64,000 nt of DNA from Elusimicrobia bacterium HGW-Elusimicrobia-3 (lineage in GTDB: Bacteria > Elusimicrobiota > Elusimicrobia > Elusimicrobiales > UBA9959). A program made the translations under genes and the position numbers. Below the pieces are notes generated by a model that did not search any database, was not told the origin of the DNA, and saw nothing but the letters and a program-made list of their open reading frames with translations. The stretch is taken from positions 108,857 to 172,856 of the forward strand of contig PHAL01000002.1 in the NCBI GenBank assembly GCA_002840355.1, read 5' to 3'. Of the stretch, positions 4,042 through 48,137 are shown piece by piece (the first letter of the stretch is position 1; every line of letters starts with the position of its first letter).

Positions 4042-4042
4042 C

Positions 4043-4860: not shown

Positions 4861-4861
4861 G

Positions 4862-5874: not shown

Positions 5875-6564
5875 ATGAGTAACAGTATTCTTGTCGTGGA
5901 AGACCACGCAGAAACCCGGGAGATGCTTAAGGCCGCGCTGGAGGATGCCGGGTTCAGGGTGGCTTGCGCCGGCGGCGTGGCCGCGGCGCAGGAGTATCTG
6001 GCCGGTAATCGCCCCCGTATGCTGATACTGGATATAAGGCTGCCTGACGGCAACGGCCTGGAGATCTGTGCTCACGCGCGGCAAAGCGACGCCATGTCGG
6101 ATATCCCGGTAATAGCCCTGACCGGCCAGGACGAACTTCCGGACAAGAAGAAAGGTTTTGATGCAGGCGTGGACCAGTACCTGACCAAGCCCATAGTTAT
6201 GGAGGAGTTATTGATGTGGGTGGACGCGCTGCTGCGGCGGGTTTCCCTGGACAAATGCGGCGGTACGCTGTTGAAAGCCGGCCGCCTTGAAATGGATGTC
6301 CGGGCCCAACTGGTGAAATTCAGGGATAAGACGGTGGAAGACCTGACCAGAAGGGAGTTCGAACTCCTCTACGCGTTGGTCAAGAACAGTCCGGAGATAC
6401 TCTCGAGGCAAGAAATATTGGCGCATGTCTGGCGCACCGTAGCGGTGGAGAACCTGGTGGATACCCACATGTTCAACCTGCGCAAGAAGCTGCCCCCCGA
6501 ACTGTCCGAACGGATACAATCCATCACCGGCAAAGGGTTCCGCTACTATGATTCGGGGCTATAA
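5875..6564 (+). CDS. OmpR/PhoB-family response regulator
   Basis: MSNSILVVEDH..., MLILDIRLPDGNG, VIALTG, YLTKP, then a winged helix (LTRREFELLYALVKNSPEILSRQEILAHVWR...THMFNLRKKL...GKGFRY). Confidence 0.9.
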   Translation: MSNSILVVEDHAETREMLKAALEDAGFRVACAGGVAAAQEYLAGNRPRMLILDIRLPDGNGLEICAHARQSDAMSDIPVIALTGQDELPDKKKGFDAGVDQYLTKPIVMEELLMWVDALLRRVSLDKCGGTLLKAGRLEMDVRAQLVKFRDKTVEDLTRREFELLYALVKNSPEILSRQEILAHVWRTVAVENLVDTHMFNLRKKLPPELSERIQSITGKGFRYYDSGL

Positions 6565-6584: not shown

Positions 6585-6627
6585 TTCGTCTTTTCTTCGG
6601 GATTCGGCGGCATGTTCTCCCTATAAT
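6585..6627 (+). promoter_or_regulatory. putative promoter/operator, motif copy B (TTCGTCTTTTCTTCGGGATTCGG-N14-TATAAT)
   Basis: The 23-mer at 6585-6607 matches copies C and D at 20-21 of 23 positions. TATAAT at 6622-6627 lies 16 nt after GGGATTC. It is 40 nt upstream of the start at 6667. Confidence 0.6.
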
Positions 6628-6666
6628 ATTGAAAGCGGGACTGTCGCGGGACACGCCTGCTCAAAT

Positions 6667-7773: not shown

Positions 7774-7788
7774 AGGTAAGGAGGGTGT

Positions 7789-8979: not shown

Positions 8980-9005
8980 GCGCGGGTTCATACTCCTCCT
9001 GCAGT

Positions 9006-9028
9006 CCCGCCGGGATAGGCCCGGCGGG
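9006..9028 (+). other. intergenic GC stem-loop (CCCGCCGGG-ATAGG-CCCGGCGGG)
   Basis: A perfect 9-bp inverted repeat lies between the 7789 and 9045 genes. No U-tract follows, so a terminator function is uncertain. Confidence 0.35.
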
Positions 9029-9044
9029 AAGAGGTAAAGATAAT

Positions 9045-10379
9045 ATGAAAAAGGTCGAGACGCTGAAAACGCTGGCAAACAGGCTCTTTAATGGGCTTGC
9101 CGGTGCTTTCTTTGTCTTTGCCTTGCTCTCCGCGTGCCTGCCGGCGGTTATAAACGCCGAGGTCCCGGTGAAGTTCACTTACCAGGGCAACCTGCGGCAG
9201 AACGGCTTCCTTGTGAACGGCCAGCGCCCCATGGTGTTCCGCATCTATGCCTCCTCCATTTCGGCCGCGGAGCTTTGGACCAGCCCTGCCTACGATGTCA
9301 GTCTTTCCACCGGTGTCTTCCGCGTTACCCTTGAGCCAGCTACCATCACAGATTGGCAGACCGGCAGCCTGTGGTTAGAACTCGAGATAGAAGGCAACCG
9401 CATGTCGCCAAGGGAAGAATTAACCTCCTCCCCCTATGCCATAAACAGTCTTATGCTTTCCGGCAAGCGCTACAGCACTTCGGCCTCAGAGCCGACGGCT
9501 TCGGTCCCCGGCGAACTCTGGTTCGATTCGGTCAACAACGTGGTGAAGTTCTGGAACGGGACAATGTGGGTGGACACTTCGGGGGGCGGCATTCCCGGCG
9601 CCCACGCGGCCCTGCACGCGGGCGGCGGCAGTGACCCGATAGTATCATTAGGCACGCATGCTGTAACCGGCTACATCACGGTCTCGTCTTCCGTGACGGC
9701 TGGCTGGTATTACGGCGACGGCTCCGGTATTTATAACCTCAACGCTTCGGCTATCAGCTACGGCTACCTTTCCGGCGACCGCATCGGCAGCGTGATAGTA
9801 TCAACGCACATCGTGGACGGCTCCATACAGGCGCAGGATATAGCCGACAATACCATTACTCGCGCCAAGCTGAACCAGTCGGGTTGCGCCAGCGGCGAGA
9901 TTCTGCAGTGGGGCGGCTCCGAGTGGGTCTGCGGCAGCGGCGCGGCCGCCGGCCTGGAGGTAGACCCGCTTTCCATACACAACCAGGACACACTGCAAGT
10001 CGGAACGACTTTCTATGTATCCTCGGGTACGGCCAACGATCTAAACGTAATTAATACCCTTAAGGTGGAAGGCACAGCGTTCATAAAGGGCGCGCCGGGC
10101 CAGCAGGGCCTCTCCGTGGATGCGACCGGCAATGTGGGCATAGGCGTGGCGGGCGCCTCCGCCAGGCTGGAAGTGCGCGGCGAGGATACCCAGGCCTACA
10201 GCCTGGCCGTGGGCACCGGCACCGCACACCAGGTGGTGGTATCCACATCAGGCGCGGTCGGCATAGGTACCGAAACCCCGCGAGCCAAGGTGGAGGTAAG
10301 CGGCGGCGAGGACTCCGGAGAGTACATAATGATCTTCAACTCCGGCACAAAGCTGGCGGCCTGGCTGAGGAATAAATAG
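9045..10379 (+). CDS. secreted fibre-family protein
   Basis: Signal/TM segment (LAGAFFVFALLSACLPAVINA). It has YYGDGSGIYNL and GNVGIGV...ARLEV / GAVGIGTETPRAKVEV segments. The C-terminal ...FNSGTKLAAWLRNK parallels ...FYSGANLAAWIKKK of the 7789 gene. Confidence 0.8.
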   Translation: MKKVETLKTLANRLFNGLAGAFFVFALLSACLPAVINAEVPVKFTYQGNLRQNGFLVNGQRPMVFRIYASSISAAELWTSPAYDVSLSTGVFRVTLEPATITDWQTGSLWLELEIEGNRMSPREELTSSPYAINSLMLSGKRYSTSASEPTASVPGELWFDSVNNVVKFWNGTMWVDTSGGGIPGAHAALHAGGGSDPIVSLGTHAVTGYITVSSSVTAGWYYGDGSGIYNLNASAISYGYLSGDRIGSVIVSTHIVDGSIQAQDIADNTITRAKLNQSGCASGEILQWGGSEWVCGSGAAAGLEVDPLSIHNQDTLQVGTTFYVSSGTANDLNVINTLKVEGTAFIKGAPGQQGLSVDATGNVGIGVAGASARLEVRGEDTQAYSLAVGTGTAHQVVVSTSGAVGIGTETPRAKVEVSGGEDSGEYIMIFNSGTKLAAWLRNK

Positions 10380-10506
10380 GAGCCCTCGGGGTTGGGCCAG
10401 TTCTTTTGGGTATATAATACGTTCCCCTCCCGCCCGCGCTTTTCTGGACGCTCACGCCTATAGGCTCAGGGATAAAGATTACGACCTTCTCATCCTGGAC
10501 GTCAAC

Positions 10507-10836
10507 ATGCCCAAGATGAACGGGTACAAGGTCTCGGAGATCCTGCACGAGAAATTGCCCTCGCCGCCCAAAGTGCTGATCTTCACCGGCCGTGACCTGG
10601 AGCAGAAAAAACTGCAGTTCGTCTGTTCCGACGCGGACGCCATTCTTAACAAGGGCACCGGCAACGACAAGCTGATCGAGACCATAGAGGGCCTGTTCGG
10701 CGGGAAACCCGCCGCCCCGCAGCCTGCGGCGCCGCCCCAGCTTACGCCGGAGCCGCCCCCGCAAACCCCGGTACCGCCCGCGGCCGCCGGGGCGAAACCG
10801 GCTTGTCGGATGTGCGGCGTGTGCTTGGGCATATAG
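10507..10836 (+). CDS. receiver-domain fragment (N-terminally truncated response regulator) with Pro-rich tail
   Basis: The frame is open only from 10369, after an in-frame TGA at 10366-10368. It reads ...GYIIRSPPARAFLDAHAYRLRDKDYDLLILDVNMPKMNGYKV...VLIFTG. Beta1/alpha1 with the acidic pair cannot be encoded. Confidence 0.6.
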   Translation: MPKMNGYKVSEILHEKLPSPPKVLIFTGRDLEQKKLQFVCSDADAILNKGTGNDKLIETIEGLFGGKPAAPQPAAPPQLTPEPPPQTPVPPAAAGAKPACRMCGVCLGI

Positions 10837-11952: not shown

Positions 11953-12072
11953 CGCCGCGCCCCCGGCAACAGGGCTCACCCCTGTCGCTGGCTCTGCTGC
12001 TTTTTCGGCCGGGGCTGGTAGTCGCGGCCTTCGTACAGGGGGGGATAGCAGCGGCCAGCGGCGGAGCACTAT

Positions 12073-12115
12073 TCGTTATTTCTTCGGGATTCAGGGGCGG
12101 GATACGCGTATAATG
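12073..12115 (+). promoter_or_regulatory. putative promoter/operator, motif copy C (TTCGTTATTTCTTCGGGATTCAG-N14-TATAAT)
   Basis: The 23-mer at 12073-12095 matches copy D at 22 of 23 positions. TATAAT at 12110-12115 lies 16 nt after GGGATTC. It is 35 nt upstream of the ATG at 12150. Confidence 0.6.
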
Positions 12116-12149
12116 CATATGGAGTCATAATATCGGACAGGCGGTAGGA

Positions 12150-13553
12150 ATGAAGACATCTTTCAGGCTGGGTCTAATTGTGTTGGGCGCCGCGCTGGCG
12201 CCGGCGCTGGTATTGTATTTCTGCGCTTTCAGGACCGGTCTCGAACTGCGCTATGCACTGGCACTCGCGGCGGGCGCGGCTATCTTTTCCTCTATGGCCG
12301 GGGCCGGGCTGATAATGGCCGGTATAGCCCTGCCCATGTCCAGGGCAGGCGCGTGTATTAAAAAATTTATTTCAGGCGGTTACAAATTGGAGTCGCCTAT
12401 CGCGAAAGCGGGCTGGCCTGAGGCCAGGGAGCACGTTTCTTCACTTAACCGCGTGCTGCTGGAGTTGAACGCCTTCCGCTCTTTTCAGATCAACCAGGCT
12501 ATAGAGGAGCGCGCCAAGGCGGAGGCCCTGCTGGAAACGATAACGGACGGGGTGCTGCTCGTGGATGACCAGGCAAGGATGATACATTGCAACAGACGCG
12601 CGCTGGAATTACTTGGACTGCCAGAGGCCGGCGCGGTAGTATTGCCGGATTCCGCCGGACAAAAGGAATTCATAGAACCGCTGCGCGAGGTGCTGGCCTC
12701 GGGGGAGAAGAACGCCAGGGTCGATATCTCCATCCGGACGGAGGGCGAGGAAGAAGGGGCGCAACGCAGTTTCAGGCTGATCTCGCGTCAATTCCTGCTG
12801 GCTACCTTTAAGCGCCCCGGCCGCGTGATAATCATACGCGACGTTAGCCTGGAGAAGGAGATAGAGGGCGCCAGGGAAACCTTCTTTCACATGATAACGC
12901 ACGATATGCGCGCGCCTATCTGCAGCATACAGGGCTATACCGAACTTATGCAGAAGCAGCGCCCATCAACCCAGAATTCAGAGCGATATCTCGACGCTAT
13001 AATGCGCTCTTCGGACAGGCTTAAAGGCATGGTGGAAGATATACTGAACATGATAAAACTGGAGCGGGGGGAAATGCGGCTGGCCTCGGTCAGCATAGAC
13101 GGCGGCGAACTCTGCGCCCGCATGTTCGAACTGCATCAGCCGCTGGCGGAACGGCGGAAGATCACACTTTCGGTTCCTCCTCCCTCCGGGGAGAAAGTCG
13201 TCTTCAACGGGGATATAGCCTTGTTGGAGCGCGTGGTGGCCAATTTGGTGGGCAATGCCCTGAAATTTACGCCCACCGGAGGCGCGGTTAGATTTAGTTG
13301 CCATGCCAAGGGGACGGACGCGCTGTTCAAGGTGGAAGACTCCGGCCCCGGCGTGCCGGAGACGATGCGCGAGGAGATATTCAAGAAACACTTCCAGCAG
13401 GAGGAGCATAAGCACATGGGGTTCGGCCTGGGCCTGGCCATGTGCAAGATGGCCGTGGAACTGCACGGCGGGCGTATCTGGGCCGACGCCGGAACGGAGC
13501 GGGGCGCCGTTTTCGCTTTCACTATTCCGTTAAAGGACGCATGCAATGCCTAA
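12150..13553 (+). CDS. sensor histidine kinase
   Basis: Two N-terminal TM helices, a PAS-like region, the H-box FFHMITHDMRAPICSI, an N-box (NLVGNALKFT) and G-boxes (DSGPGV, GFGLGLA). Confidence 0.9.
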   Translation: MKTSFRLGLIVLGAALAPALVLYFCAFRTGLELRYALALAAGAAIFSSMAGAGLIMAGIALPMSRAGACIKKFISGGYKLESPIAKAGWPEAREHVSSLNRVLLELNAFRSFQINQAIEERAKAEALLETITDGVLLVDDQARMIHCNRRALELLGLPEAGAVVLPDSAGQKEFIEPLREVLASGEKNARVDISIRTEGEEEGAQRSFRLISRQFLLATFKRPGRVIIIRDVSLEKEIEGARETFFHMITHDMRAPICSIQGYTELMQKQRPSTQNSERYLDAIMRSSDRLKGMVEDILNMIKLERGEMRLASVSIDGGELCARMFELHQPLAERRKITLSVPPPSGEKVVFNGDIALLERVVANLVGNALKFTPTGGAVRFSCHAKGTDALFKVEDSGPGVPETMREEIFKKHFQQEEHKHMGFGLGLAMCKMAVELHGGRIWADAGTERGAVFAFTIPLKDACNA

Positions 13554-13956
13554 AGCGCTCATAGTCGACGACGAACCGGCGATACAGCAATTGTTCCGGT
13601 ATGTATTGGAGGAAGCGGAGTTCGAGGTGCAGGTGGCCCAGAACGGTCTGGAAGGCTTATCGGCGCTGGCTTCCGGTCCGGTGGACATCATGCTGCTGGA
13701 CGTTTCCATGCCGGAGATGGACGGGCGGCAGTTCGTGACCGAGATTATGCGCCGTTCCGCGCGCGATAGCAGGCTGGCCGAGATCCCTTTTATAGTCATG
13801 ACCGGGGAAAACTTCATGGAAAGCGGGCTTAACCGGACCTTCTCCGCCGCGCCGGGATTCGTCTGTTTCCTGCCCAAGATGACCCCCCCGGAGACAGTGC
13901 TGGAAAAAATACGGGAAGCTATGTCCCCGCCGTCTTCCTCTGGCTCCGGCGGGTAG
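13546..13956 (+). CDS. single-domain response regulator
   Basis: ALIVDDEPA, IMLLDVSMPEMDG, FIVMTG. It overlaps the HK gene by 8 nt. Confidence 0.85.
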   Translation: MPKALIVDDEPAIQQLFRYVLEEAEFEVQVAQNGLEGLSALASGPVDIMLLDVSMPEMDGRQFVTEIMRRSARDSRLAEIPFIVMTGENFMESGLNRTFSAAPGFVCFLPKMTPPETVLEKIREAMSPPSSSGSGG

Positions 13957-22363: not shown

Positions 22364-23587
22364 ATGATGAAACCGATAAGAAGAATAATAACCGCTTTGA
22401 TACTCTCGTCGTTCGCCGCGCAGAACGCGGCGGCGGCGCAGTTCCGGGTGATGGAGAACCTGGCGGTGAACGGGGTCTCGGTGCTTAAGAGTTCCGTCAC
22501 CATAACGGGCAAAGACCCGACCACCGGTTACAGCCTGACGCTGAGCTCCGGCGTTTATACGCCGGACGGCACCGTCCTTGCCAACCTGTTCATCGGCGAC
22601 GGCTCAGGGCTTACAGGTGTTATCGGCACGGACAACCTGGGTAATCATACCGCCACGCAGGACCTTAACCTTAACGGGTTTAACCTCTTAAATGTTTCCT
22701 CGCTCAACTTCACTAGCCTTATCGGGTTAAGGGCGGCTACGCCGGCTAATTACGGCGGCATCTACGCCAGCACGCATGTCTATGTGAACGGTGATGTCCA
22801 TGCCGCCTATTTCCACGGCGACGGTTCGGCGCTTACCGGCCTTCCGATATTCGGTGATAACCTGGGCGACCATACCGCCACGCAGGACATCAATGCCAAT
22901 AGCTTCGACCTGCTCAATGTCTCCTCCATTTCTTTCACCAGCCTGGTAGGCCTGAGCAGCGCCACCAAAGCCAACTACGGCGGGATATACTCGTCCACCC
23001 ATGTCTATGTAAACGGCAATGTATACGGCGGTATTTTTTATGGGGACGGTTCGGGGCTTACCAATGTTACGGTTCCCGGGGATAACCTGGGCGACCATAC
23101 GGCCACGCAGGACCTGAACATGGCCGGCAACAGCATAATAAACGTAGATACCATGACCGTGGTCGGCAACGCTTTCAGCGTAGGGGGCTCTACCCTTGTT
23201 GTAAAAGAGGGGAAGGTCGGTATCGGGACCAATGCCCCGCAGGCTGGCCTGGAAGTGAACAATACCGCTATTTTCTCTTCGGAATATGACAACGGCAATT
23301 CCGGCACCGCCCTAACCATAACCTGGACCAACGGCAATAAACAGAAAGTGACGCTTACCGGCAATGTTGCGTTCACCTTTTCCGCCCCAGCCGGCAAGGC
23401 CGCCAGCTTTCTGTTGCGGCTGGTGCAGGACGCCACCGGCAGCCGCACCGTAACCTGGCCGGCCGCGGTTAAATGGCGCGGCGGCGTGGCCCCGCGCCAG
23501 AGCACGGCCGCCAATGCCATAGATATAGTGAGTTTTTACTACAACGGGACTGATTATTACGGGTGTAGTGGTTCCGGTTATCAGTAA
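22364..23587 (+). CDS. secreted fibre-family protein, tandem paralog 1 (407 aa)
   Basis: Signal peptide. Three repeats of GDGS.LTG....DNLG(N/D)HTATQD(L/I)N.N.F.LLNVSS(L/I).FTS. C-terminal domain ...TVTWPAAVKWRGGVAP...IDIVSFYYNGTDYYG. Confidence 0.8.
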   Translation: MMKPIRRIITALILSSFAAQNAAAAQFRVMENLAVNGVSVLKSSVTITGKDPTTGYSLTLSSGVYTPDGTVLANLFIGDGSGLTGVIGTDNLGNHTATQDLNLNGFNLLNVSSLNFTSLIGLRAATPANYGGIYASTHVYVNGDVHAAYFHGDGSALTGLPIFGDNLGDHTATQDINANSFDLLNVSSISFTSLVGLSSATKANYGGIYSSTHVYVNGNVYGGIFYGDGSGLTNVTVPGDNLGDHTATQDLNMAGNSIINVDTMTVVGNAFSVGGSTLVVKEGKVGIGTNAPQAGLEVNNTAIFSSEYDNGNSGTALTITWTNGNKQKVTLTGNVAFTFSAPAGKAASFLLRLVQDATGSRTVTWPAAVKWRGGVAPRQSTAANAIDIVSFYYNGTDYYGCSGSGYQ

Positions 23588-23610: not shown

Positions 23611-24834
23611 ATGTCTTTTAAACGAATATTGATAGCGGGGCTGATAGCCTTTTCCTTTAAAAGCTTCTCCAACGCGGCCCAGTATGAAGTGCCGTATGGT
23701 TTTACCGTGGAGGGGCTGAGCCTGTTCGCTTCTTCCGTGACGGTGACCGGCAAGGACGCCGCCAGCGGCTACAGCCTTGCCCTGGGTTCCGGCGTCTATA
23801 CTCCGGCGGGCACCGTTTACGCCAATCTGTTCATCGGCGATGGCTCCGGACTCTTCAATGTCTTTGCCGGTGACGATCTGGGCGACCATGCCGCTGTCCA
23901 GGACATGGACCTCAACGGCTTTAACATTGTGAATGTGTCTTCCCTCGCTTTTACGCCGGTCATCGGTTTAAGCAGCGCGCCCGCTAAGAATTATGGGGGC
24001 GTGTTCATAAGCACGCACGCGTACCTTAACGGCAATATGCGCGCCGTTAAATATTACGGCAACGGCTCCGCCTTGGCCAATCTCCCTTCGCCTCCCGAAG
24101 ATGATCTGGGGAACCATACGGCAGCGCAGGATATAGACATCGACAGTTTTAACCTGCTAAACATCTCTTCTATCTCTTTCTCCAGCCAGATCGGCCTGAG
24201 CAGCGCAACCAAGACCAACTATGGTGGAATATATTCGTCCACGCATGTCTATGCCAATGGCAATGTCTACGCCGGCCTATTTTACGGAGACGCCGTGGGG
24301 ATTACCAATCTCCCGTTCTCCGGAGATGACCTTGGCAATCATATCTCCACCAAGACCCTTGATATGGCCGCCGGCTCCGTCATAAATATCGATACGGTGA
24401 CCATAACGGGCAATGCATTCGGAGTGGGCGGTTCCACCCTTGCGGCGCAGGCGGGGAATGTCGGCATCGGCGCTGCTTCACCGCAGGCCGCCCTGGAGTT
24501 CGGCGGCGCCGCAGTCTTCTCCTCCGAGTACAATAATGGCAACTCTGGCACAGCAAAAACCATCGCCTGGGCTAACGGCAATATGCAGGCCGTTACCCTC
24601 ACCGGGAATGTTACATTCACATTTTCTCCCGTTTCGGCCAGCGGGGCGGCGAACCTGATATTAAGGGTGGCGCAGGACGCCACCGGCGGGCGTTCAGTTA
24701 CCTGGCCGGCCGCGGTTAAATGGCTGGGCGGCGCTGCCGCCGCTCTGAGCACTAACGCCAATGCCGTGGATATTGTAACTTTCTATTTTGACGGCGCCAG
24801 TTATTACGGCGGCTTTACCACCGGTTACCAGTGA
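23611..24834 (+). CDS. secreted fibre-family protein, tandem paralog 2 (407 aa)
   Basis: Same length and architecture as the 22364 gene: DDLGDHAAVQDMDLNGFNIVNVSS, DDLGNHTAAQDIDIDSFNLLNISS, ...SVTWPAAVKWLGGAAA...VDIVTFYFDGASYYG. Confidence 0.8.
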   Translation: MSFKRILIAGLIAFSFKSFSNAAQYEVPYGFTVEGLSLFASSVTVTGKDAASGYSLALGSGVYTPAGTVYANLFIGDGSGLFNVFAGDDLGDHAAVQDMDLNGFNIVNVSSLAFTPVIGLSSAPAKNYGGVFISTHAYLNGNMRAVKYYGNGSALANLPSPPEDDLGNHTAAQDIDIDSFNLLNISSISFSSQIGLSSATKTNYGGIYSSTHVYANGNVYAGLFYGDAVGITNLPFSGDDLGNHISTKTLDMAAGSVINIDTVTITGNAFGVGGSTLAAQAGNVGIGAASPQAALEFGGAAVFSSEYNNGNSGTAKTIAWANGNMQAVTLTGNVTFTFSPVSASGAANLILRVAQDATGGRSVTWPAAVKWLGGAAAALSTNANAVDIVTFYFDGASYYGGFTTGYQ

Positions 24835-39485: not shown

Positions 39486-40019
39486 ATGCGGGCCGCTATG
39501 AGCGGCTCTTTAAAAACCGATAGCCTGGCCGCGCCGCGGCCGGTGTCGTTTTTTTTGCGGCCCGCCCGGCCCGGGCGCGTTGTACTGGAATTCGTCCTGC
39601 CGGGGGCGCGGCGCCATGAAGGAGTTCCGCTTAATATCAAAAGTATGCCTCCTTGGCTTGACGCGCTCCTGGCGCGGGCCGAGGGCGCTATTCCGGGGGA
39701 CGGTTACAAAGTCTTCGGAGATCTTAGTATCTGCGTGGATTCCCGGCTGGTGAAGTTTGGCGGTAAAGTGATACCGGACCTGACGACCAGGGAAATAGAT
39801 CTGCTTGCCGCCCTGGCCGCCGCCGCCCCGGCCGTAATATCGAGGGAAAATATCGTTTCCAAAGTATGGAAAACCGTTGCGGTACCCAACCTTGTTCACA
39901 CCCATGTCTGTAACCTGCGCCGGAAACTGCCCGCGCGGCTGGCCGCGCGTATACAGGCCGTTCCTGGGAAAGGGTTCCGCTATTTCCATTCCCGTGCGGA
40001 AGTCCTGCCCTGGATATAA
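39486..40019 (+). CDS. OmpR-type winged-helix protein lacking a functional receiver (start uncertain; the ATG at 39645 is an alternative)
   Basis: The C-terminus (LTTREIDLLAALAAAAPAVISRENIVSKVWKTVAVPNLVHTHVCNLRRKLPARLAARIQAVPGKGFRYF) is paralogous to the 5875 product. Upstream there is only a vestigial alpha5-like PWLDALLAR. An in-frame TAA at 39459-39461 blocks any receiver N-terminal half. Confidence 0.7.
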   Translation: MRAAMSGSLKTDSLAAPRPVSFFLRPARPGRVVLEFVLPGARRHEGVPLNIKSMPPWLDALLARAEGAIPGDGYKVFGDLSICVDSRLVKFGGKVIPDLTTREIDLLAALAAAAPAVISRENIVSKVWKTVAVPNLVHTHVCNLRRKLPARLAARIQAVPGKGFRYFHSRAEVLPWI

Positions 40020-40067: not shown

Positions 40068-40110
40068 TTCGTCATTTCTTCGGGATTCAGCGCTCCCCCG
40101 GGTATAGACT
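40068..40110 (+). promoter_or_regulatory. putative promoter/operator, motif copy D (TTCGTCATTTCTTCGGGATTCAG-N14-TAGACT)
   Basis: The 23-mer at 40068-40090 matches copy C at 22 of 23 positions. A TAnnnT hexamer at 40105-40110 lies 16 nt after GGGATTC. It is 20 nt upstream of the ATG at 40130. Confidence 0.55.
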
Positions 40111-40129
40111 ATCTATAGGTGAACTACCT

Positions 40130-41848
40130 ATGAACAGAGGAGCCGGAAAAATCTTTGGCGCAGTCATGTCCTTTACGGGCATGCTGTGCCTTGCCGTTAC
40201 CGGCTATTGCGGTGACGCCGGCTCGGCCGGCGCGTCTTTCTTGAAATTTTCACCCAGCCCCAGGGGTACCGGTATGGGTGAGTCCCACGTTTCGATATCA
40301 GAAGACGCCTATTCCTCGTGGTGGAACCCGGCCGGCCTGGGCAGCGTGGAGGGGCCGGAGCTGGCCGCTACCTACAACGATTCCATGGAGGACGTCGCCA
40401 ACCAGTATCTTTCGGTGGCGTATCCTCTCCGTTATGGCTCCACGCTGGGGCTGAGCGTTACCCGCCTGAGCGTCTCTCCCTTTCAGGGTTACGACGCGCA
40501 GGGGGTAAAGAGCGGCAGGGTGGAATCCTCGGACATGTCGGTGGGGGCCGCTTACGGGCGGGCCATCATGAAGGACGAGATAGAACGTCCGGTGCTCAAC
40601 GTGGGGGCGGTCTTTAAGGTAATCAGCGAAGAACTGGCCGGGGTCTCCGCTTATACCGCGGCGCTGGATCTTGGCGCGGTCTATTATATTAGGCCGGACA
40701 ATTACTGGATGAGCAAGGCGCCGGCGCAAGAATTCCGCGTAGCCGCCACCTTGCGCAACCTGGGCCCCGGCTTAAAGTTCGACAAGGAGTCCTCGCCGCT
40801 GCCCTTGTCCGCCACACTGGGCGGGTCATGGCATTCGCATCCCGGCGGCAGCGCCAGCCTTATAATCAGCCTGGACCAGACCATCTCCAGGGACGAGAAC
40901 TATTATGCCGCGCTGGGCGCCGAGTACGTGGCCTTTCAACTGCTCTCGCTGCGGGCGGGCTATCGCACCGGGCAGGACATCGGTTCCGGCCTGCGCTTCG
41001 GCGTGGGTTTCCGCCTTTCCATCGCCGATATAGATTATTCCATGTCGCCGTTCGGGGAGCTGGGGGCTATGCACAAGCTGGGCGTCTCTATGCGGTTGGG
41101 AGCCACGGCGGCCAAATTGCCGCTGGCCGGCAAGACCCAGCGCGTAAAAGGAGCCCGGCTGATGGCTCCCAAGGACAAGATAGAAAAACTGGATCTTTTC
41201 GCCAATGATTTCCTGGAGCTGGCCCGCAAAGATCTGTCGGCCCGCCGCTATGTTTCTGCCCAGGCCAATATTCGCAAAGCCTTTAACCTGGATCCCAGGC
41301 TGAAGGAAGGCGACTGGGGCCGCCGTGAAAAGCGCCTTGGCGAAGTTATAGCGGGGCTTAAGCTGGCCGATATCCCGGCCAGGGAGAGAACGCTGGCCGC
41401 CAAGGGCGAGCAGTCCGGCATAGCGGCCGAGGCTATAGCCGCCTATATAGAGAGCAAGGACCTGAAGGCCTTCCTGCTCGCGCATGCCGCGCTGGGCACC
41501 GACCTGCGGGGCGACGCCGTCTTTGAGGAACTGCTCTACATATTGAGCGACCTGGTAAAGATACATGTGCGCCGCGACGAGATACTCCCGAGGCAGGCGC
41601 TGATCAAGGAAAAGCTCAGGAAGGCGGCCAGGGGTTTTTACATACGCCAGTTCGACACGGCCGCCAAGGAATGCGAGGAGGTTGCCGTAATAGACGAGGC
41701 GAATCCCGTGGCCTGGACCAGGCTGGGCTCGGCCTATTTCATGATGGGGGATAAGGATAAAGCCAAGGCCGCCTACCGCAAGGCCCTGGAAATAAACCCG
41801 TCCGACCCGGTTACCAGTGAATTCATGCGGGCCCAGGGCTGGGAGTAG
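40130..41848 (+). CDS. outer-membrane beta-barrel (PorV/UPF0164-like) fused to C-terminal TPR region
   Basis: Signal peptide. AGASFLKFSPSPRGTGMGESHVSISEDAYSSWWNPAGLG resembles the N-terminal signature of PorV/PorQ-type barrels (recalled from memory). Alternating beta-strand pattern. C-terminal TPR (AWTRLGSAYFMMGDKDKAKAAYRKALEINPSDP). Confidence 0.6.
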   Translation: MNRGAGKIFGAVMSFTGMLCLAVTGYCGDAGSAGASFLKFSPSPRGTGMGESHVSISEDAYSSWWNPAGLGSVEGPELAATYNDSMEDVANQYLSVAYPLRYGSTLGLSVTRLSVSPFQGYDAQGVKSGRVESSDMSVGAAYGRAIMKDEIERPVLNVGAVFKVISEELAGVSAYTAALDLGAVYYIRPDNYWMSKAPAQEFRVAATLRNLGPGLKFDKESSPLPLSATLGGSWHSHPGGSASLIISLDQTISRDENYYAALGAEYVAFQLLSLRAGYRTGQDIGSGLRFGVGFRLSIADIDYSMSPFGELGAMHKLGVSMRLGATAAKLPLAGKTQRVKGARLMAPKDKIEKLDLFANDFLELARKDLSARRYVSAQANIRKAFNLDPRLKEGDWGRREKRLGEVIAGLKLADIPARERTLAAKGEQSGIAAEAIAAYIESKDLKAFLLAHAALGTDLRGDAVFEELLYILSDLVKIHVRRDEILPRQALIKEKLRKAARGFYIRQFDTAAKECEEVAVIDEANPVAWTRLGSAYFMMGDKDKAKAAYRKALEINPSDPVTSEFMRAQGWE

Positions 41849-41852
41849 CGAC

Positions 41853-42794
41853 ATGGACATACTGCTGATCATGATCGTCCCTGTATCCCTGCTGCTGCTG
41901 GGCGCCGGCTTCCTGGTGGTAGCCCAGGTCTCCGGTTTCATGCAGTCGACTTTCTTCAATAGCCGGCAGAATTTTTCGAACATGATAATACAGCAGTACA
42001 TGGAACGCATTACCCTGGCCCAGGGGCAGCTCTACCAGCGCAAGCAGGAGCTGGAGGCTATGTCGGGCAAGCTGGCGTTGTCCAACCAGGAACTGGGCCG
42101 CCTTAACGACATGAAGTCCAAGTTCCTGTCCATGGTGGTGCACGACGTACGCACGCCGCTGGCCTCCATCAGGGGGTTCAGCGAACTGCTGATGAAGAAG
42201 AAGGTGGGGGAGAAAGAGACGGCCTACCTGAAGAATATCGTCAGTTCCACCGACCAGCTGGGCCGCCTGATAGCGGACCTGACCGACCTGGCCATGATAG
42301 AGGCCGGAAAACTGAAGATGGAAAAGGCGCTGTTCGAGTTCCCGGATATGGCGCGGGACATCCTGCCCGGCCTGTCCATCAACGCGCAGAAGAAAGGCGT
42401 GGACCTGGTAGTTCATGATTTCCCCGACGGGGTACTAGTGAACGGCGACAAGTTCCGCCTGTCGCAGGTATTCATGAACCTGGTCAACAACGCTATAAAG
42501 TTCACCCCTGCGGGGAAAAAGGTGGAGGTGTCCTTCAGGCGCGAAGGCAAGTACGTGGACACGCTGGTCAAAGATTCAGGGATAGGAATACACCCGAGCG
42601 AGACCAGGAAGATCTTCGAGAAGTTCTACCAGGCCAAGTACCAGAAGGACGCGGCGCTGCGCAAGCAGGGCTGGGGTCTGGGGCTTTCGATAGCGCAGGA
42701 GGTGGTGCGGGCGCATAAGGGGGATATCGGCGCCCAGAGCCCCGGGCTGGGCAAGGGCTCCACCTTCTGGTTCAAGATCCCGGTAGGCACATAA
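41853..42794 (+). CDS. minimal membrane histidine kinase (one TM, no sensor domain)
   Basis: MDILLIMIVPVSLLLLGAGFLVVAQV, a coiled-coil linker, the H-box KSKFLSMVVHDVRTPLASI, an N-box (NLVNNAIKFT) and G-boxes (DSGIGI, GWGLGLSIA). Confidence 0.85.
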   Translation: MDILLIMIVPVSLLLLGAGFLVVAQVSGFMQSTFFNSRQNFSNMIIQQYMERITLAQGQLYQRKQELEAMSGKLALSNQELGRLNDMKSKFLSMVVHDVRTPLASIRGFSELLMKKKVGEKETAYLKNIVSSTDQLGRLIADLTDLAMIEAGKLKMEKALFEFPDMARDILPGLSINAQKKGVDLVVHDFPDGVLVNGDKFRLSQVFMNLVNNAIKFTPAGKKVEVSFRREGKYVDTLVKDSGIGIHPSETRKIFEKFYQAKYQKDAALRKQGWGLGLSIAQEVVRAHKGDIGAQSPGLGKGSTFWFKIPVGT

Positions 42795-42809
42795 GGATTG
42801 GAGGCTACT

Positions 42810-43547
42810 ATGGACATTACAACGATAATAGGTTTTCTGGGCGCCGTCGGCCTGATCTCCGCCGGAGTGGCCGGAGAGCAGATCTCGGCCTCGCTGATAA
42901 ACATGCACGGCGTGGTGGTGGTGCTGGGCGGCACGCTGGTGGCCACGCTGATAAACACTCCGCTGAAATTCATCCGGGGCGCAATATCCGAGCTCGGCCT
43001 GATCTTCAGGGAGAACGACGAGGTGGCGCCCGACAGGATCATCCCGGTGATAGTCGCGCTCGCCGAACAGTCCCGCATGCGCGGGCTGTCCGCGCTCAAG
43101 GAGGCCGATCCCGCGGTGGCCAAGGGTTTTCTGAGCAGGGCCGCCACCGCCGCGCTGGAATATAACGATACCAAGTTCGTTAGGGAAGTCCTCGAGCAGG
43201 AGATAAACCAGGGCGTGGACGACATGAACGAAGTGGCCAACGTCTACCGCACGATGGGCGTGATGGCCCCGATGTTCGGCCTGCTGGGCACGCTGATAGG
43301 CATCATCGGCGTGCTCAAGGACCTGGCCAACCCCGAGAGCGTGGGCCCTGCCATGGCCGTGGCCATCACCTCGGCCTTCTACGGGATCTTCTTCGCCAAT
43401 ATGATCTGCGTTCCTATAGCCGGCAAAATGCGCGCCAAGGTGTGGCTGGACGTGCGCATGAAATCCATGATACTGGAAGGGGTGCTGGAGATCATGAAGG
43501 GCAGCATGCCGCTGGTGATCGAGCGCAGGCTGCAGTCGTATCTTTAG
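42810..43547 (+). CDS. motA: MotA/PomA-type stator proton-channel protein
   Basis: GGAGG lies 6 nt before the ATG at 42810. Four TM helices. MGVMAPMFGLLGTLIGIIGVL and AVAITSAFYGIFFANMICVPIAGKM carry the two conserved Pro residues of the MotA/ExbB/TolQ channel family. The ~245-aa length is PomA-like. Confidence 0.8.
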   Translation: MDITTIIGFLGAVGLISAGVAGEQISASLINMHGVVVVLGGTLVATLINTPLKFIRGAISELGLIFRENDEVAPDRIIPVIVALAEQSRMRGLSALKEADPAVAKGFLSRAATAALEYNDTKFVREVLEQEINQGVDDMNEVANVYRTMGVMAPMFGLLGTLIGIIGVLKDLANPESVGPAMAVAITSAFYGIFFANMICVPIAGKMRAKVWLDVRMKSMILEGVLEIMKGSMPLVIERRLQSYL

Positions 43548-43569
43548 TCCTGGAGCGGAGGTTGTGGTT

Positions 43570-45102
43570 ATGGAAACTAAAATGATGAAAAAAATCAGCC
43601 GCGGGGTACTCTGCTCCGCGCTGGCCACCCTTGCCCTGCTCCCGGTACTGGCCGTGCGCTGCCGGGCCCAGTCGCTGCCCTTCGAGGACAAGGCCAAATA
43701 CGAGAAGGCCCTGGAGCAGAAGGTGGACGATGTGCTGGTCCGCCTGCTGGGGCCGAACCAGGCCAAGGTGGTGGTAGAGGCAACTATGGACTTCAGCCGC
43801 ACCGAGAAACTGGACGTCACTTCGGCGGCGCCGTCGGACAAGGAGAACCCGTTCAAATGGCAGGGGGCCGGCGGCGAGGCGCAATCGGGCGACTACCTGA
43901 TGCCCGGCTTCCTTTCCTTCTCCGCGGGCTCCAACGAGAATAAATCCTATAACCGGCAGATGCTGTACCCGTCGGCTTTCATCAAGAAGATGACGGTCAG
44001 CATTATCCTCAACCGCGACCTGCCCGATCTGGACGCCGAGAACATCCGGCGGGTGGTCTCCGAAATGATGCAGCTCGACGTTAAACGGGGGGACCAGCTC
44101 TCCGTCATAAAGGCTCCGTTCGCCCCGCTGTGGCGCACCATCTGGTACACCCCCGAGGCCATCAGCATGGTGCTCAAGTACGTGATGCTGGCGCTGATGG
44201 GGATAATAGGCATGATAGTGGTGGCCGTCGGCTTTCTCAAACTTGCCGGCGCCATGAGCACCATGGCGAAGGTGCAGCAGAGCCACCAGATAACCATGGA
44301 CCTGGGCAAGGGCGCCGGGCCGGCCGGCCTGGACGGGCCGCCGCCCGCCCTGGGCGGCCCGGCCGAAAGGCCGCAGGCCGCGGCCGGCGAGCCGGGGATG
44401 GGCGGGGGGGACGACAGAGTGGTATTCAGCGTGCGGCCCGACCAGGTGCCGTTCCTGGTGAACATGATGGCCAGCGAGGACCCGGCCAACGTGGCCCTGG
44501 TGGCCGGCCACCTGCCGGCGGAGGTGCGCACGGACTTCCTGCGCAAGCTGCCTCCGGCCTTCTCCTCCGACGTGCTGATCCATATGGCCAAGATCCGTTT
44601 CGTCGAGCCGGAGATCATAGCCACGCTCAAGGACGAGCTGGAGCGCCGGCTGAGCGGGGCGGTGGGCGGCCTGGACGGGGCGCTGGAAGCCATAGAGAGC
44701 ATGACCCTGAAGGCCAGGATAGAGATGCTGGAGGAACTGGGCAGGAAGCATCCGGAACTGGCCGCCGAAGTGCGCCGCCGCGTGCTGCTGCCCGACGATA
44801 TCGGCCGGTTCAGCGAGCGGGAACTGTCGCTGCTGGCCGGCGCGCTGAAGGCCGAGGAATGGGCTACGGCTCTTTTCAGACTGTCGGACTCCGTAAAGGA
44901 GAAACTGCGCGCCCAGATGGCCGACAAGACCTGGGCCATGATAGAGCAGAGCATGAGCTACGGCAGCCCCTCGCACGAAAAGGCGGAGGAAGCGCTCGAA
45001 CGCGTGATGGCCGCCGCGGCCGCCTTCATAAAAGAGGGAAAGATCGTTAACCCGGCCGATTCTCAGCAACCGCTGCTCGAGAGCGGCCAGGCCGAGGCCT
45101 AG
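43570..45102 (+). CDS. FliF-like (single ring-building region + TM) / FliG-like (middle + C-terminal domains) fusion protein
   Basis: Signal/TM segment. LEQKVDDVLVRLLGPNQAKVVVEATMDFSRTEKLDV and IKKMTVSIILNRD...VSEMMQLDVKRGDQLSVIKAPFAP, followed by a TM helix, parallel the FliF C-terminal periplasmic part. A Gly/Pro linker follows. EDPANVALVAGHLPAEVR... and RRRVLLPDDIGRFSERELSLLAGALKAEEWATALFRLSDSVKEKLRAQM...EEALERVMAAAAAFIKEGKI parallel FliG-M and FliG-C. Start ambiguous (43564 GTG, 43570, 43582). Confidence 0.65.
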   Translation: METKMMKKISRGVLCSALATLALLPVLAVRCRAQSLPFEDKAKYEKALEQKVDDVLVRLLGPNQAKVVVEATMDFSRTEKLDVTSAAPSDKENPFKWQGAGGEAQSGDYLMPGFLSFSAGSNENKSYNRQMLYPSAFIKKMTVSIILNRDLPDLDAENIRRVVSEMMQLDVKRGDQLSVIKAPFAPLWRTIWYTPEAISMVLKYVMLALMGIIGMIVVAVGFLKLAGAMSTMAKVQQSHQITMDLGKGAGPAGLDGPPPALGGPAERPQAAAGEPGMGGGDDRVVFSVRPDQVPFLVNMMASEDPANVALVAGHLPAEVRTDFLRKLPPAFSSDVLIHMAKIRFVEPEIIATLKDELERRLSGAVGGLDGALEAIESMTLKARIEMLEELGRKHPELAAEVRRRVLLPDDIGRFSERELSLLAGALKAEEWATALFRLSDSVKEKLRAQMADKTWAMIEQSMSYGSPSHEKAEEALERVMAAAAAFIKEGKIVNPADSQQPLLESGQAEA

Positions 45103-45110
45103 GAGGGGAT

Positions 45111-46616
45111 ATGGACAACCAGAAATATAAGAAGGACTCGGTGTTCTCTTCGGTATTCCCGCAGCAGGAACCTGCCAGCCCGCCCGCGCCGGCCGCGGCG
45201 CCGGTCCATAAGCCCGAGGTTTCCGAAGGGCAGGTCTCGGCCTTGAACAAGAAGATAGAAATGCTGGAGCGCAATATAGTCGGCGAACTGCAGCGGACGC
45301 TGGCGGAACGCGCGTCCGCGCCGCCTGCTCCGCCCCCGCCTCCGTCGCAGGCCATCCCGGCCGTCATTTCCAAAATAACCGAGATGGAAAACCGCTTCAA
45401 GGAATTCCAGGAGAAATTCCTGATCGGGGCGGCGCAGATGAAGAATATAGAGGAGTCCAAGATCAGCGCGCGCCGGGAGATAGAGGAACTGCTCAAGGTG
45501 GTGCGCGAGCAGCAGAAGTATTCGGAACTCGACAGGCAGATGCATGACCAGCTGGAAAAAGCCTGGGCCCGCGTGGAGCAGATGGAGGGCCGTCTTGTTG
45601 AAGCTTACGCCGCAGCCGCCCAAAAAACCGCACCCGCCGCTCCGCCAGTCGCTCCTCCCGCCCCGCAGGTCTCCGCGGACGAAATAGCCGCGGCCGTTCT
45701 GAAGGCCGTAGACGGGGCTATCGGTGAAAGAATAAAGGCGGTCGACGCGAAGCTCGACGCCAGGCTGCGGCTCTTGGAGGACATGGTACGGAAGTCCCAG
45801 GCGGGCGCCGGGGAGTCCCTGGAGGCCTGCCGCCAGTTGGGGGCCGGCTTTGCCTCACACTCGTCGCGGGTGGACTCGGCCCTGGCCTCCATTTCTGAGG
45901 AAGTCGGCCGTTCGGCTATCAGCGCCTTCTCCGGTAAGGAACGCCTGGAGGATATGGTCACGGATATGAAGACGGAGTTGAAGGGTTATATAAAAGAGCA
46001 GGCGGACCGGTCAGTTTCCGCCTTTGTCGGTCATGCGGACGCTTCCGCGCTTGACGCCCGTGAGCGGCTCGACGCGCTGGCGCGGATGATGGTGACCCAT
46101 GTGGATTCCCTGACCGCTGCCCAGGCGGCCGTCTCTGCGCGGTTGGGGGATATGGCCGCGACCGTTGATAACCACGCGGCGGCGCAGCAGCGGACCGTTG
46201 TCTCCAGCGCCGAAGATGCGGAGCGTTCGCTGCGCGCCGGACTGGACTCGCTGGCGGCCCGGGTGAGCGCGGAGAACGACGGGCAGTTGCTGAAACTCAG
46301 GGAAGTCTTTGATCTTTCCGCCTCCGGTCAGGCCGCGCTTTCCGGTGCAGCCGCCGATATTGCCGGGATAGAGTCCCGGCTTGAAGCTTTGCGGACCGTT
46401 CTGGGCCGCGTCCTCGCCGACCTGCGCGCCGTGAACCTGGAGGGGATCTTAGGCGTCTCGGGGGCCGTTATCCGCAAGACGGTGGAAGGTCTTCCCGGGC
46501 TTTGCGAAGAATTGCGGCGTAACGAGACGCTGATGAGGGAAAAACGCGCCGTGATAGAGGCCGGCGCGTTGCGGCTGCGGGCCGGAGGCGGAGGCGACTC
46601 AAATGAGCGGCCCTGA
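45111..46616 (+). CDS. Pro/Ala-rich coiled-coil protein (501 aa), no TM
   Basis: AGGAGG lies before the ATG. Two PAPP-type stretches separate long heptad-like helices (ALNKKIEMLERNIVGELQRTL..., ENRFKEFQEKFLIGAAQMKNIEESKISARREIEELLKVVREQQ...). Confidence 0.65.
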   Translation: MDNQKYKKDSVFSSVFPQQEPASPPAPAAAPVHKPEVSEGQVSALNKKIEMLERNIVGELQRTLAERASAPPAPPPPPSQAIPAVISKITEMENRFKEFQEKFLIGAAQMKNIEESKISARREIEELLKVVREQQKYSELDRQMHDQLEKAWARVEQMEGRLVEAYAAAAQKTAPAAPPVAPPAPQVSADEIAAAVLKAVDGAIGERIKAVDAKLDARLRLLEDMVRKSQAGAGESLEACRQLGAGFASHSSRVDSALASISEEVGRSAISAFSGKERLEDMVTDMKTELKGYIKEQADRSVSAFVGHADASALDARERLDALARMMVTHVDSLTAAQAAVSARLGDMAATVDNHAAAQQRTVVSSAEDAERSLRAGLDSLAARVSAENDGQLLKLREVFDLSASGQAALSGAAADIAGIESRLEALRTVLGRVLADLRAVNLEGILGVSGAVIRKTVEGLPGLCEELRRNETLMREKRAVIEAGALRLRAGGGGDSNERP

Positions 46617-47445
46617 TTCACTGTTCTCCTGCATACAGCCGGCTGAAGCGCCACGGGGCGATGCCTGCGCATCTAAACCTGCGCCGCCGCCACCGCCTCC
46701 GGCGCCGACAGCCGCCCAGGCGAGGAATAGCGATCTGGAAGCAAGGCTGAATAAAAGCGAGGAAAGACGGCTGGCGGCCGAAACCAGGCTGGCGGAACTG
46801 GAAAAAGGCTTTGCGGCCTTTAAAAATGAATTGGCGCGGACCAGGGAGTCCCTTGCCGCGGGTCCCGGCCCGGCGGCTATCCAGGAGTTGAAACAGGAAT
46901 TATCGGTTCTCTCGCGCAGACTCCTGGCCGCGGAGGCGGCGGTCTCCCGCGACTCTTTGCGCGATGGGCAGGCCAGCGCCCTGGAGGCGGCGGACAGGCG
47001 GCTGAAAGAAGCCGAAGCGCGCATAGGCGAGGAAATAGAGCGCCGCTTTGCCGGTTTGGATACGGCGATTTTTGAAATCGCGCGCAAAGCGCTGACGGCT
47101 AAAGAGGCCGCGGCGGGGAATACGCGCAGGCTGGAAAGGCTGGAGGAGCGGACCGCGCGTTTGACATACATAGAGAAGCGGCTGAACAGCAGCGAGAATA
47201 AGTTCGAAAGGATCTGCGAGTGCGAAGCGCTGGCGGAATCGCTAAAGGTAAGCGTGGAGGAAGTGGAACGGACGCTGGCCGAAATGCTGCACAAGGAGGC
47301 CTCCCTCGCGGCGGAGAACCGCAAGACGGCCTCCGAACTGCAATCCCTGTCCGCGCAGGTGGGACAGATCAGCGCCCTTTTTAATCACTTCCGGTCCGAA
47401 CTTTCCTTTCTGATTCCCGGGAGAAAGGACGTGGCCGGGGGGTAA
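46603..47445 (+). CDS. Pro-rich N-terminus + coiled-coil protein (280 aa)
   Basis: It overlaps the upstream gene by 14 nt. KPAPPPPPPAPT is followed by continuous coiled coil (DLEARLNKSEERRLAAETRLAELEKGFAAFKNELARTRESL...). Confidence 0.65.
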   Translation: MSGPDSLFSCIQPAEAPRGDACASKPAPPPPPPAPTAAQARNSDLEARLNKSEERRLAAETRLAELEKGFAAFKNELARTRESLAAGPGPAAIQELKQELSVLSRRLLAAEAAVSRDSLRDGQASALEAADRRLKEAEARIGEEIERRFAGLDTAIFEIARKALTAKEAAAGNTRRLERLEERTARLTYIEKRLNSSENKFERICECEALAESLKVSVEEVERTLAEMLHKEASLAAENRKTASELQSLSAQVGQISALFNHFRSELSFLIPGRKDVAGG

Positions 47446-47456
47446 GGTATTACTTT

Positions 47457-48137
47457 ATGGCGATATACAAACAAAGGCGCGACGAGGTGGAGAACCAGCT
47501 CAACAAGGGGGCGCTGTGGGCGGTTACCTACGGCGACCTGATGAGCTACCTGATGATCTTCTTCCTGGTCCTGTTCTCGTTCTCTGTCTCTAAAAACGAC
47601 AAGACCAAGAACAGGAAATACGAGGAGTCGCTAGGGAACATCCAGAAGGCTTTCGGCGGTACGGCAGACTCCCCGCGGTTGGAGCGGGCGATAGCCAAGG
47701 AGAACGAGGAGGCGACGGCCAAGAAACTGCAGGAGTCCGTGGCGTCGAGCCTGGTGCAGGTGGAATCCAGCGAAAAGAGGCTCAAACTGGTACTCACCGA
47801 GGGGGTGCTGTTCGACTCCGGCCGGGCCGACCTGAGAGAAAGGGCCCGGGAGGTACTGAAACCCATAGTGGACGAGTTGAAGAAACTGCCCAATGAAGTG
47901 GTAGTGGAGGGCCATACAGACAATGTGCCCATAAAGAGCGGCCGGTATTCCACCAACTGGGAACTTTCTATGGCCAGGGCCTACAGCGTGATAAGTTACA
48001 TGGAGAGCCTGGGGATGGACAAGCGCAAGCTCGCGGGCATCGGCTATGGCGAGAATCGCCCTGTCGCGGCCAATATCGACTACGAGGGCCGCGCCAGGAA
48101 CCGCCGTATAGAAATATCCCTGATGAAAACTGATTGA
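47457..48137 (+). CDS. motB: MotB-type stator protein with OmpA-like peptidoglycan-binding domain
   Basis: ALWAVTYGDLMSYLMIFFLVLFSF (TM helix with the conserved Asp). C-terminal VVVEGHTDNVPI...SNWELSMARAYSV...GIGYGENRPVA...NRRIEISL. Confidence 0.85.
   Translation: MAIYKQRRDEVENQLNKGALWAVTYGDLMSYLMIFFLVLFSFSVSKNDKTKNRKYEESLGNIQKAFGGTADSPRLERAIAKENEEATAKKLQESVASSLVQVESSEKRLKLVLTEGVLFDSGRADLRERAREVLKPIVDELKKLPNEVVVEGHTDNVPIKSGRYSTNWELSMARAYSVISYMESLGMDKRKLAGIGYGENRPVAANIDYEGRARNRRIEISLMKTD

Follow-up and report, generated by a model that had tools for sequence, protein, structure and literature searches.

Within a 64,000-nucleotide (64-kb) stretch of the genome of Elusimicrobia bacterium HGW-Elusimicrobia-3 (contig PHAL01000002.1, positions 108,857 to 172,856; here called the window), the 23-mer TTCGTCATTTCTTCGGGATTCAG occupies positions 40068–40090 of the plus strand, as a direct check of the sequence confirmed. 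It stands before a seven-gene operon (40130–48137) that encodes a PorV-family outer-membrane barrel together with MotA-, MotB- and FliG-like proteins. On sequence comparison, a promoter box that is conserved throughout the phylum Elusimicrobia has the 23-mer as its core. We consider it probable that an OmpR/PhoB-type regulator, most likely the product of the gene at 5875–6564, binds this box and brings about class II activation of the 40130–48137 operon as part of one regulon. The identity of the binder, the activation and the transcription start are in each case read from the anatomy of the promoter and from gene linkage. An earlier note on this DNA had described the 23-mer as an operator that places the motor-like operon in the same regulon as the operon at 6667–10379. 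The shared regulon is supported by comparison, as the box is invariant in eight loci and heads 23 orthologues of the barrel gene and 25 of gene 6667. The notion of a shared cis element also stands, but the element is better described as an activator box that takes the place of a −35 hexamer.

Anatomy of the box and its promoter

The conserved core of the 23-mer measures 20 bp and is built as a tandem direct repeat, TTCGnnATTTC followed by TTCGGGATT, with a period of 11 bp. At the position under study, which we call site D, the box (40068–40087, plus strand) reads TTCGTCATTTC and then TTCGGGATT, and it is invariant in eight orthologous loci. Its distal half, TTCGTCATT (40068–40076), and its proximal half, TTCGGGATT (40079–40087), follow the pattern as TTCGtcATT and TTCGggATT, with starts offset by 11 bp, in keeping with direct repeats one helical turn (10–11 bp) apart. 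Direct repeats of 11-bp period are a known binding mode of the OmpR/PhoB family (PMC4832192, PMC2275107), described as 7-bp repeats with a 4-bp spacer (PMC4832192) and as 11-nt direct repeat units (PMC2275107). Exactly 17 nt past the box lies a −10-like octamer, TAGACTAT (40105–40112, plus strand). Its hexamer TAGACT (40105–40110) follows the 23-mer after 14 nt, where 16 nt had been claimed; the ATG of the barrel gene (40130–41848) does begin 20 nt past the end of TAGACT, as had been reported.

With up to three mismatches allowed, the 23-mer occurs at 40068 (no mismatch), 12072 (one) and 6585 (two) in the window, always on the plus strand, and no copy arose in 100 dinucleotide-preserving shuffles. 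The earlier figures of 22 of 23 positions identical to copy C and 21 of 23 to copy B are reproduced, with the start of copy C at 12072 rather than 12073. Site D had been counted as a fourth copy; there are only three full copies, and what was taken as the first is probably the lone half-site TTCGGGATT at 5810–5818. At site B (6585–6604, plus strand), TTCGTCTTTTC is followed by TTCGGGATT, 17 nt and TATAATAT (6622–6629), and the promoter heads the 6667–10379 operon. At site C (12072–12091, plus strand), TTCGTTATTTC is followed by TTCGGGATT, 17 nt and TATAATGC (12109–12116). This copy does not head fibre genes but a PAS histidine kinase gene (12150–13553, plus strand) and then a receiver gene (13546–13956, plus strand). 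Site A (5810–5841, plus strand) consists of the lone half-site, 17 nt and TATAAT (5836–5841), and forms the promoter of gene 5875. The proximal half is thus separated from the −10-like element by exactly 17 nt at all four sites, A to D.

When the whole window was searched with relaxed rules for half-site plus −10, nothing appeared beyond these four sites and a degenerate half-site, CTCGGGGTT, which is followed by 19 nt and TATAAT (10387–10420, plus strand) and then by a 5′-truncated receiver open reading frame (ORF; 10507–10836). No box precedes the giant-protein gene 15710 of the window, though homologues of that gene in relatives carry one. The truncated receiver ORF lacks its N-terminal half and covers only profile positions 52–110. 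At the equivalent spot in a relative (L203), an intact half-site is followed by a gene of more than 1817 aa, so the segment 10387–10836 looks like a remnant of a rearrangement.

Placing the −10 hexamer at −12 to −7 gives the box a span of about −49 to −30, with its proximal half over the −35 position, where site D has GGGATT, unlike a −35 hexamer (TTGACA). From this span, the box appears to replace the missing −35 hexamer. A sigma-70 consensus scan around site D did not call a promoter, a result that is consistent with the absent −35 and is not evidence against a promoter. We propose that an OmpR/PhoB-family winged-helix protein, for which the response regulator 5875–6564 in its phosphorylated form is the likeliest candidate, would sit as a head-to-tail dimer on the two 9-bp half-sites TTCGnnATT one helical turn apart, and that the bound dimer would recruit RNA polymerase to the octamer 17 nt downstream in the manner of class II activation. 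The segment 40068–40112 would then serve as the promoter of the 40130–48137 operon. Sites B, C and D, together with half-site A, would make up one regulon with positive feedback, in which the lone half-site at the regulator's own promoter may give weak, feedback-type control.

Conservation of the box across the Elusimicrobia

An unbiased set of eight loci (L001–L008), picked only by homology to the barrel protein (60–81% amino acid identity), retains both the operon and its promoter. All eight keep the gene order barrel, kinase, MotA, FliF-FliG, unknown(s), MotB, and all eight have box and octamer upstream of the barrel gene. In a box-anchored alignment of these loci, TTC, ATTTCTTCGGGATT and TA.ACTAT stay invariant; no column does so in the 40 nt upstream or in the 17-nt spacer, and three more invariant columns are scattered nearer the start codon. 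The distal half is TTCGGGATT or TTCGGTATT in the more distant relatives, which makes the direct repeat near-perfect there.

A scan for the exact pattern TTCGNNATTTCTTCGGGATT in one genome per species (185,579 species) gave at least 119 matches, with at most 8 kb of sequence for each. Its counts, which here and below are among the matches listed, are lower bounds and are biased towards perfect sites. The sequence TA.[AC].T stands exactly 17 nt downstream in 62 of 119 matches, where about one would be expected. All but one of these box-plus-octamer sites (61 of 62, in 38 assemblies) are labelled Elusimicrobia or have Elusimicrobia-type genes downstream, and the remaining one is a chance hit; no −10 accompanies the listed matches in other phyla. 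The consensus of the −10 is an octamer, TA(t/g)A(c/a)TAT, whose trailing AT, not part of the scan filter, has its A in 59 and its T in 58 of the 62. The start codon follows the octamer at a median distance of 15 nt, and within 40 nt at 54 of 59 sites. All eight unbiased loci therefore have a box over, or in place of, the −35, at a constant distance from a −10 of sigma-70 type; so do 62 of 62 scan sites, which had been selected by their spacing.

The 62 listed sites lead mainly into two kinds of operon, with an orthologue of the barrel gene 40130 downstream of 23 and an orthologue of gene 6667 downstream of 25. Homologues of the giant protein 15710 account for three further sites and an orthologue of the operon kinase 41817 for one; giant Lcl_C or Kelch/fn3 proteins, PorV-like paralogues and an FGE-sulfatase protein are also among the targets. 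Because the same box and −10 head both operon types phylum-wide, the idea that they are co-regulated is supported. The orthologue of the site C kinase is preceded by a full box or half-site in L001, L003 and L004. In L005 (5183–7408), a Y1 transposase gene lies just upstream of the PAS kinase orthologue. That orthologue lacks a box and is broken into two ORFs; the sensor of that assembly thus appears to be disrupted.

The octamer takes operon-specific forms: TA[G/A/C]ACTAT in barrel-operon promoters (22 of 23 species) and TATA[A/C]TAT in 6667-type promoters (25 of 25), which suggests different degrees of activator dependence. Of 43 box promoters, 35 have an AT after the hexamer; among 173 hexamers that lie near genes but lack a box, the figure is 16. 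The extension is absent from the regulator's own half-site promoters. As a general −10 of these genomes the octamer was rejected, since box-less gene-proximal octamers number 13 and those of the reverse-strand control 12.

The scan pattern also matched tandem 11-mers, TTCGGGAnnnC, in Bacteroidota (Chitinophagaceae, Prevotella and others; L014, L046, L071, L108, L110, L112 and L116). These arrays have no −10 at N17 and were rejected as the same element; they are an unrelated repeat of the same period that shares the half-site by chance. At the barrel operon of some relatives (L004 at about 9837–9865, on a contig shared with L073; L039; L045), an inverted repeat, TAGACTAT...ATAGTCTATG, stretches between the octamer and the start codon. 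Site D of the window shows no obvious counterpart. The repeat might offer a second site for a protein or form a hairpin in the leader.

Candidate regulators and competing explanations

The prime candidate for the binding protein is the OmpR/PhoB-family response regulator encoded at 5875–6564 (plus strand), which combines a receiver domain (Response_reg, E = 1.3e-24) with a winged helix (Trans_reg_C, E = 1.5e-16). Its best solved relatives are PrrA, KdpE, RegX3, MtrA and PhoP, with full-length alignment to PrrA and KdpE. The gene adjoins a box in seven other assemblies: orthologues of 53–93% identity end just upstream of the box of the 6667 orthologue in L028, L096, L021, L015 and L018, and are divergent from the box in L044 and L065. 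The family comprises at least 120 clusters at 45–92% identity, and those that carry an organism name are all from Elusimicrobia. In keeping with a conserved phospho-acceptor Asp in the receiver, the motif LILD..LPDGNG is at least 90% conserved in the family. So are the N, L, V, D, T, H, N, L, R, K, L and P of the recognition helix, V-E-N-L-V-D-T-H-x-F-N-L-R-K-K-L-P. This near-invariant helix parallels the invariant DNA half-site. Together with the adjacent boxes and the half-site in the regulator promoters, it makes a protein of the 5875 type the likeliest binder, and we regard the assignment as probable. Nine of 11 regulator genes examined have a promoter of their own of the form (T)TCGGGATT-N17/18-TATAAT, which lacks the distal half; the half-site before these genes suggests a putative autoregulation. 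A metagenome scan with the regulator protein added four close relatives (L128–L131), with the half-site promoter present in L128 and L129; no full box was found downstream of the regulator within their short contigs.

A second winged-helix gene (39486–40019, plus strand) ends shortly before site D. It had been described as an OmpR-type winged helix paralogous to the 5875 product, and this description holds (Trans_reg_C, E = 1.8e-14; 45% identity over 130 aa, E = 6e-32). Only Trans_reg_C was found in it, and homology to the 5875 product begins at residue 98 of the latter, so that the paralogue is receiver-less. Its recognition helix, NLVHTHVCNLRRKLP, and those of its counterparts in L011 (NLVDVHIFNLRRKLP) and L085 belong to the 5875 class. 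Orthologues occupy the same position in L085 and L011, where, as in the window, the barrel-operon box comes directly after the gene. A linked winged-helix regulator is thus found as the 5875 type in the window and seven assemblies, and as the receiver-less paralogue in the window, L085 and L011. The paralogue probably needs no phosphorylation to bind the same half-sites and would act there either as a competitor or as a constitutive co-activator. The start codon of the gene is uncertain. A GC-rich hairpin with a T-run, terminator-like, lies at 39525–39560, inside the predicted N-terminal part of the ORF; if translation began at the in-frame ATG at 39645, the product would be 124 aa of linker and winged helix, but the L011 orthologue aligns from residue 10. 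The long form may be real.

The succession of winged-helix gene, motif and operon had been put forward as a duplicated arrangement. It is present at both sites B and D, but its barrel-operon form is not general: beyond this species we found that form only in L085 and L011, and elsewhere the gene before the barrel-operon box is in most loci a receiver-only or giant-protein gene.

A third winged-helix gene, with a degenerate receiver and Trans_reg_C (4862–5578, minus strand), diverges from 5875 and is an alternative, less likely candidate binder. Its helix, ECVDKHIESLRRKL, recurs in its relatives in L202 and L203 and differs from that of the 5875 class. Three receiver-only genes follow it, and the whole cluster occupies 3661–5578 on the minus strand. 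In L203 the regulator is flanked by the same cluster, there with five receiver-only genes, and L202 has extra genes with Trans_reg_C only. These gene clusters suggest a multi-receiver phosphorelay around the regulon.

Several observations weigh against activation by a 5875-type dimer. Most relatives have no winged-helix gene next to the barrel-operon box, and more distant species with a 6667-type site have none within the 8-kb piece, although with at most 8 kb per match a regulator gene not seen nearby is weak evidence. No site lies near the regulator homologues of 48–49% identity (L200, L201), for which orthology is improbable. The 4862–5578 class, with its L202 and L203 relatives, is equally syntenic. 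For a dimeric regulator, it is unusual that its own promoter conserves just one half-site, at the −35 position, and the −10 is an unusually rigid octamer at a spacing fixed at 17, as a dedicated sigma factor would also give. Since the octamer is not the general −10 of these genomes, one argument against such a sigma factor is weakened.

The best placed of the competing explanations, a serious rival though an unlikely one, takes up these last points: a dedicated Elusimicrobia sigma factor for an envelope regulon would read the box (or just the proximal half, CGGGATT) as its −35 and the octamer TA(t/g)A(c/a)TAT as its −10, with the winged-helix genes only neighbours or modulators. There is precedent in Porphyromonas, where type IX secretion system (T9SS) genes are under the extracytoplasmic function (ECF) sigma factor SigP (PMC4800418). 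This explanation would fit the rigid N17 spacing and an 8-bp −10 that marks box promoters in particular, not Elusimicrobia promoters at large; it would also fit the proximal half being enough, alone at −35, in the regulator's and some kinase promoters. However, the conserved block is 20 bp long, reaches about −49 and contains an 11-bp repeat, whereas sigma region 4 reads only some 6–7 bp near −35. The −10 hexamer is sigma-70-like (TATAAT/TATACT), and neither TTCGnnATTTCTTCGGGATT nor the octamer corresponds to the blocks of ECF (GGAAC and CGTC) or sigma-28 (TAAA and GCCGATAA) promoters. Half-site promoters do without the AT extension and tolerate N18, and no sigma-factor domain was found among about 150 annotated neighbouring genes in 12 loci.

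Next in order, and also improbable, is binding by another transcription factor, either a 4862–5578-type protein with the ECVDKHIESLRRKL helix or an unlinked regulator. In both the window and L203, a gene of this type divergently adjoins the regulator and box locus; L202 has additional copies, and most barrel-operon boxes have no 5875-type gene as a neighbour. Against this, two separate genes of the 5875 helix class end 20–130 nt before a box and none of the 4862 class does, and the 5875-type family is broad, with a helix as invariant as the half-site.

We give little credence to a true operator, at which a repressor over the −35 region would block a constitutive promoter. The site does overlap the −35 position, and sites B and C have a strong −10 (TATAAT), but polymerase would find no −35-like hexamer (GGGATT versus TTGACA, and no sigma-70 call at site D), and the weakened −10 of the barrel operon (TAGACT type) is kept in 22 of 23 listed species, which fits dependence on an activator. 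Scarcely credible is a relic of segmental duplication (winged-helix 3′ end plus downstream DNA), or an RNA element, without regulation at the DNA level: sites B and D both follow paralogous genes whose 3′ ends align, but these genes are only 45% identical while the box is near-identical and invariant across species with fully diverged flanks, a footprint that excludes such a relic, and the box lies upstream of the −10 and so would not be transcribed, in a window in which an Rfam scan matched zero families and a known riboswitch or small RNA was accordingly rejected.

The operons behind the boxes and related systems

The seven genes of the site D operon (40130–48137) are tightly packed on the plus strand. 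They encode a PorV/PorQ-family outer-membrane barrel with C-terminal TPR (40130–41848; NF033709 PorV_fam, 147.4 bits, cutoff 90), a histidine kinase (41817–42794), a MotA-type stator of the flagellar type (42798–43547), a membrane-anchored FliF_C-FliG_M-FliG_C fusion (43564–45102), two unassigned coiled-coil proteins (45111–46616 and 46603–47445) and a MotB-plug/OmpA protein (47457–48137). The flagellar domains MotA, MotB-plug/OmpA and FliG_M/FliG_C are present, and no other flagellar genes were found in the barrel operon in any of nine loci. The site B operon (6667–10379, plus strand) begins with a protein that carries a signal peptide and a T9SS type-A C-terminal sorting domain (6667–7773; TIGR04183 Por_Secre_tail, 24.7 bits, cutoff 23), followed by two secreted repeat proteins with a common C-terminal tail (7789–8979 and 9045–10379). 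The window encodes both a PorV-family barrel (40130–41848) and a cargo-like protein with a type-A sorting domain (6667–7773). None of SprA/Sov, PorK, PorL, PorM, PorN and PorU was among the Pfam and NCBIfam hits of the window ORFs examined (first 48 kb). The two commonest targets of the box, the T9SS-tail protein and the PorV/PorQ barrel, form a pairing familiar from type IX secretion, found here beside MotA/MotB/FliG-like genes and in a phylum for which no T9SS is described.

As a regulatory element, the box belongs to a known kind. Pho boxes replace the −35 at a fixed distance from a sigma-70-type −10, and the pho box of E. coli PhoB and the PhoP boxes of Mycobacterium and Streptomyces share with the Elusimicrobia box the regulator family, the 11-bp direct repeats, the replaced −35 and, putatively here, an autoregulated regulator gene. 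They differ in sequence, the half-site TTCGGGATT being unrelated, and in distance, which is about 10–12 nt from the −10 for pho and PhoP boxes and 17 nt here. A class-specific octamer −10 and a single half-site at the regulator promoter also set the Elusimicrobia system apart. The pho and PhoP regulons serve phosphate or magnesium homeostasis, whereas the predicted binding here would control envelope machinery and surface proteins. The motAB promoters of sigma-28 (FliA) likewise have two blocks at fixed spacing, a long −10 and stator genes downstream, but their consensus, TAAA-N15-GCCGATAA, is unlike box or octamer, and no flagellar structural genes accompany the Elusimicrobia operon.

In content, the regulon comes closer to PorXY-SigP of Porphyromonas gingivalis, a two-component control of type IX secretion genes (PMC4800418). 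PorV is the outer-membrane shuttle of the T9SS for cargo with C-terminal domains (PMC5562754), and in both cases a two-component system would stand over a PorV-family protein and proteins with C-terminal sorting domains (PMC4800418, PMC5562754). Unlike the 5875 product, PorX has no winged-helix DNA-binding domain and works through the ECF sigma factor SigP (PMC4800418). The T9SS motor is PorL/PorM, in place of which the Elusimicrobia operon has flagellar-type MotA/MotB and a FliF-FliG fusion. The T9SS is regarded as specific to Bacteroidetes (PMC7463736).

Against this background, we tentatively raise the possibility of a phylum-wide envelope regulon in which an undescribed trans-envelope machine (PorV-family barrel with TPR, MotA/MotB stator, FliF-FliG fusion, coiled-coil proteins and its own kinase) might be co-expressed with its probable cargo, the T9SS-tail protein and giant surface proteins. 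Such an assembly could be a secretion, surface-display or surface-motility apparatus outside Bacteroidota, with a FliG-coupled rotary stator and under one OmpR-type two-component switch. A full-text literature search returned nothing relevant on transcriptional regulation in Elusimicrobia or on the PorV/MotAB/FliG-like machine. The analysis provides a precise cis element (20-bp box, N17, octamer), a candidate regulator and two core operons, conserved in at least 38 species, and its interest lies in the conserved regulon that links an unexplained machine to putative cargo. The box ties the PorV-like/MotAB/FliG-like operon to T9SS-tail proteins and giant surface proteins, which argues that all of them belong to a single envelope process. 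The box is chiefly of value for guiding functional work, as it indicates which genes of an uncultivated phylum should be investigated as a group.

A comparison of protein tails revealed no C-terminal signal common to all proteins of the regulon. Two groups do share one: the 7789 and 9045 proteins end in a common tail, ...SG(A/T)(N/K)LAAW(I/L)(K/R)xK (8935–8979 and 10335–10379), and a different C-terminal block, VTWPAAVKW...IDIV.FY..G..YYG (23400–23587 and 24650–24834), is common to proteins 22364 and 23611. Both shared tails may be sorting or assembly signals.

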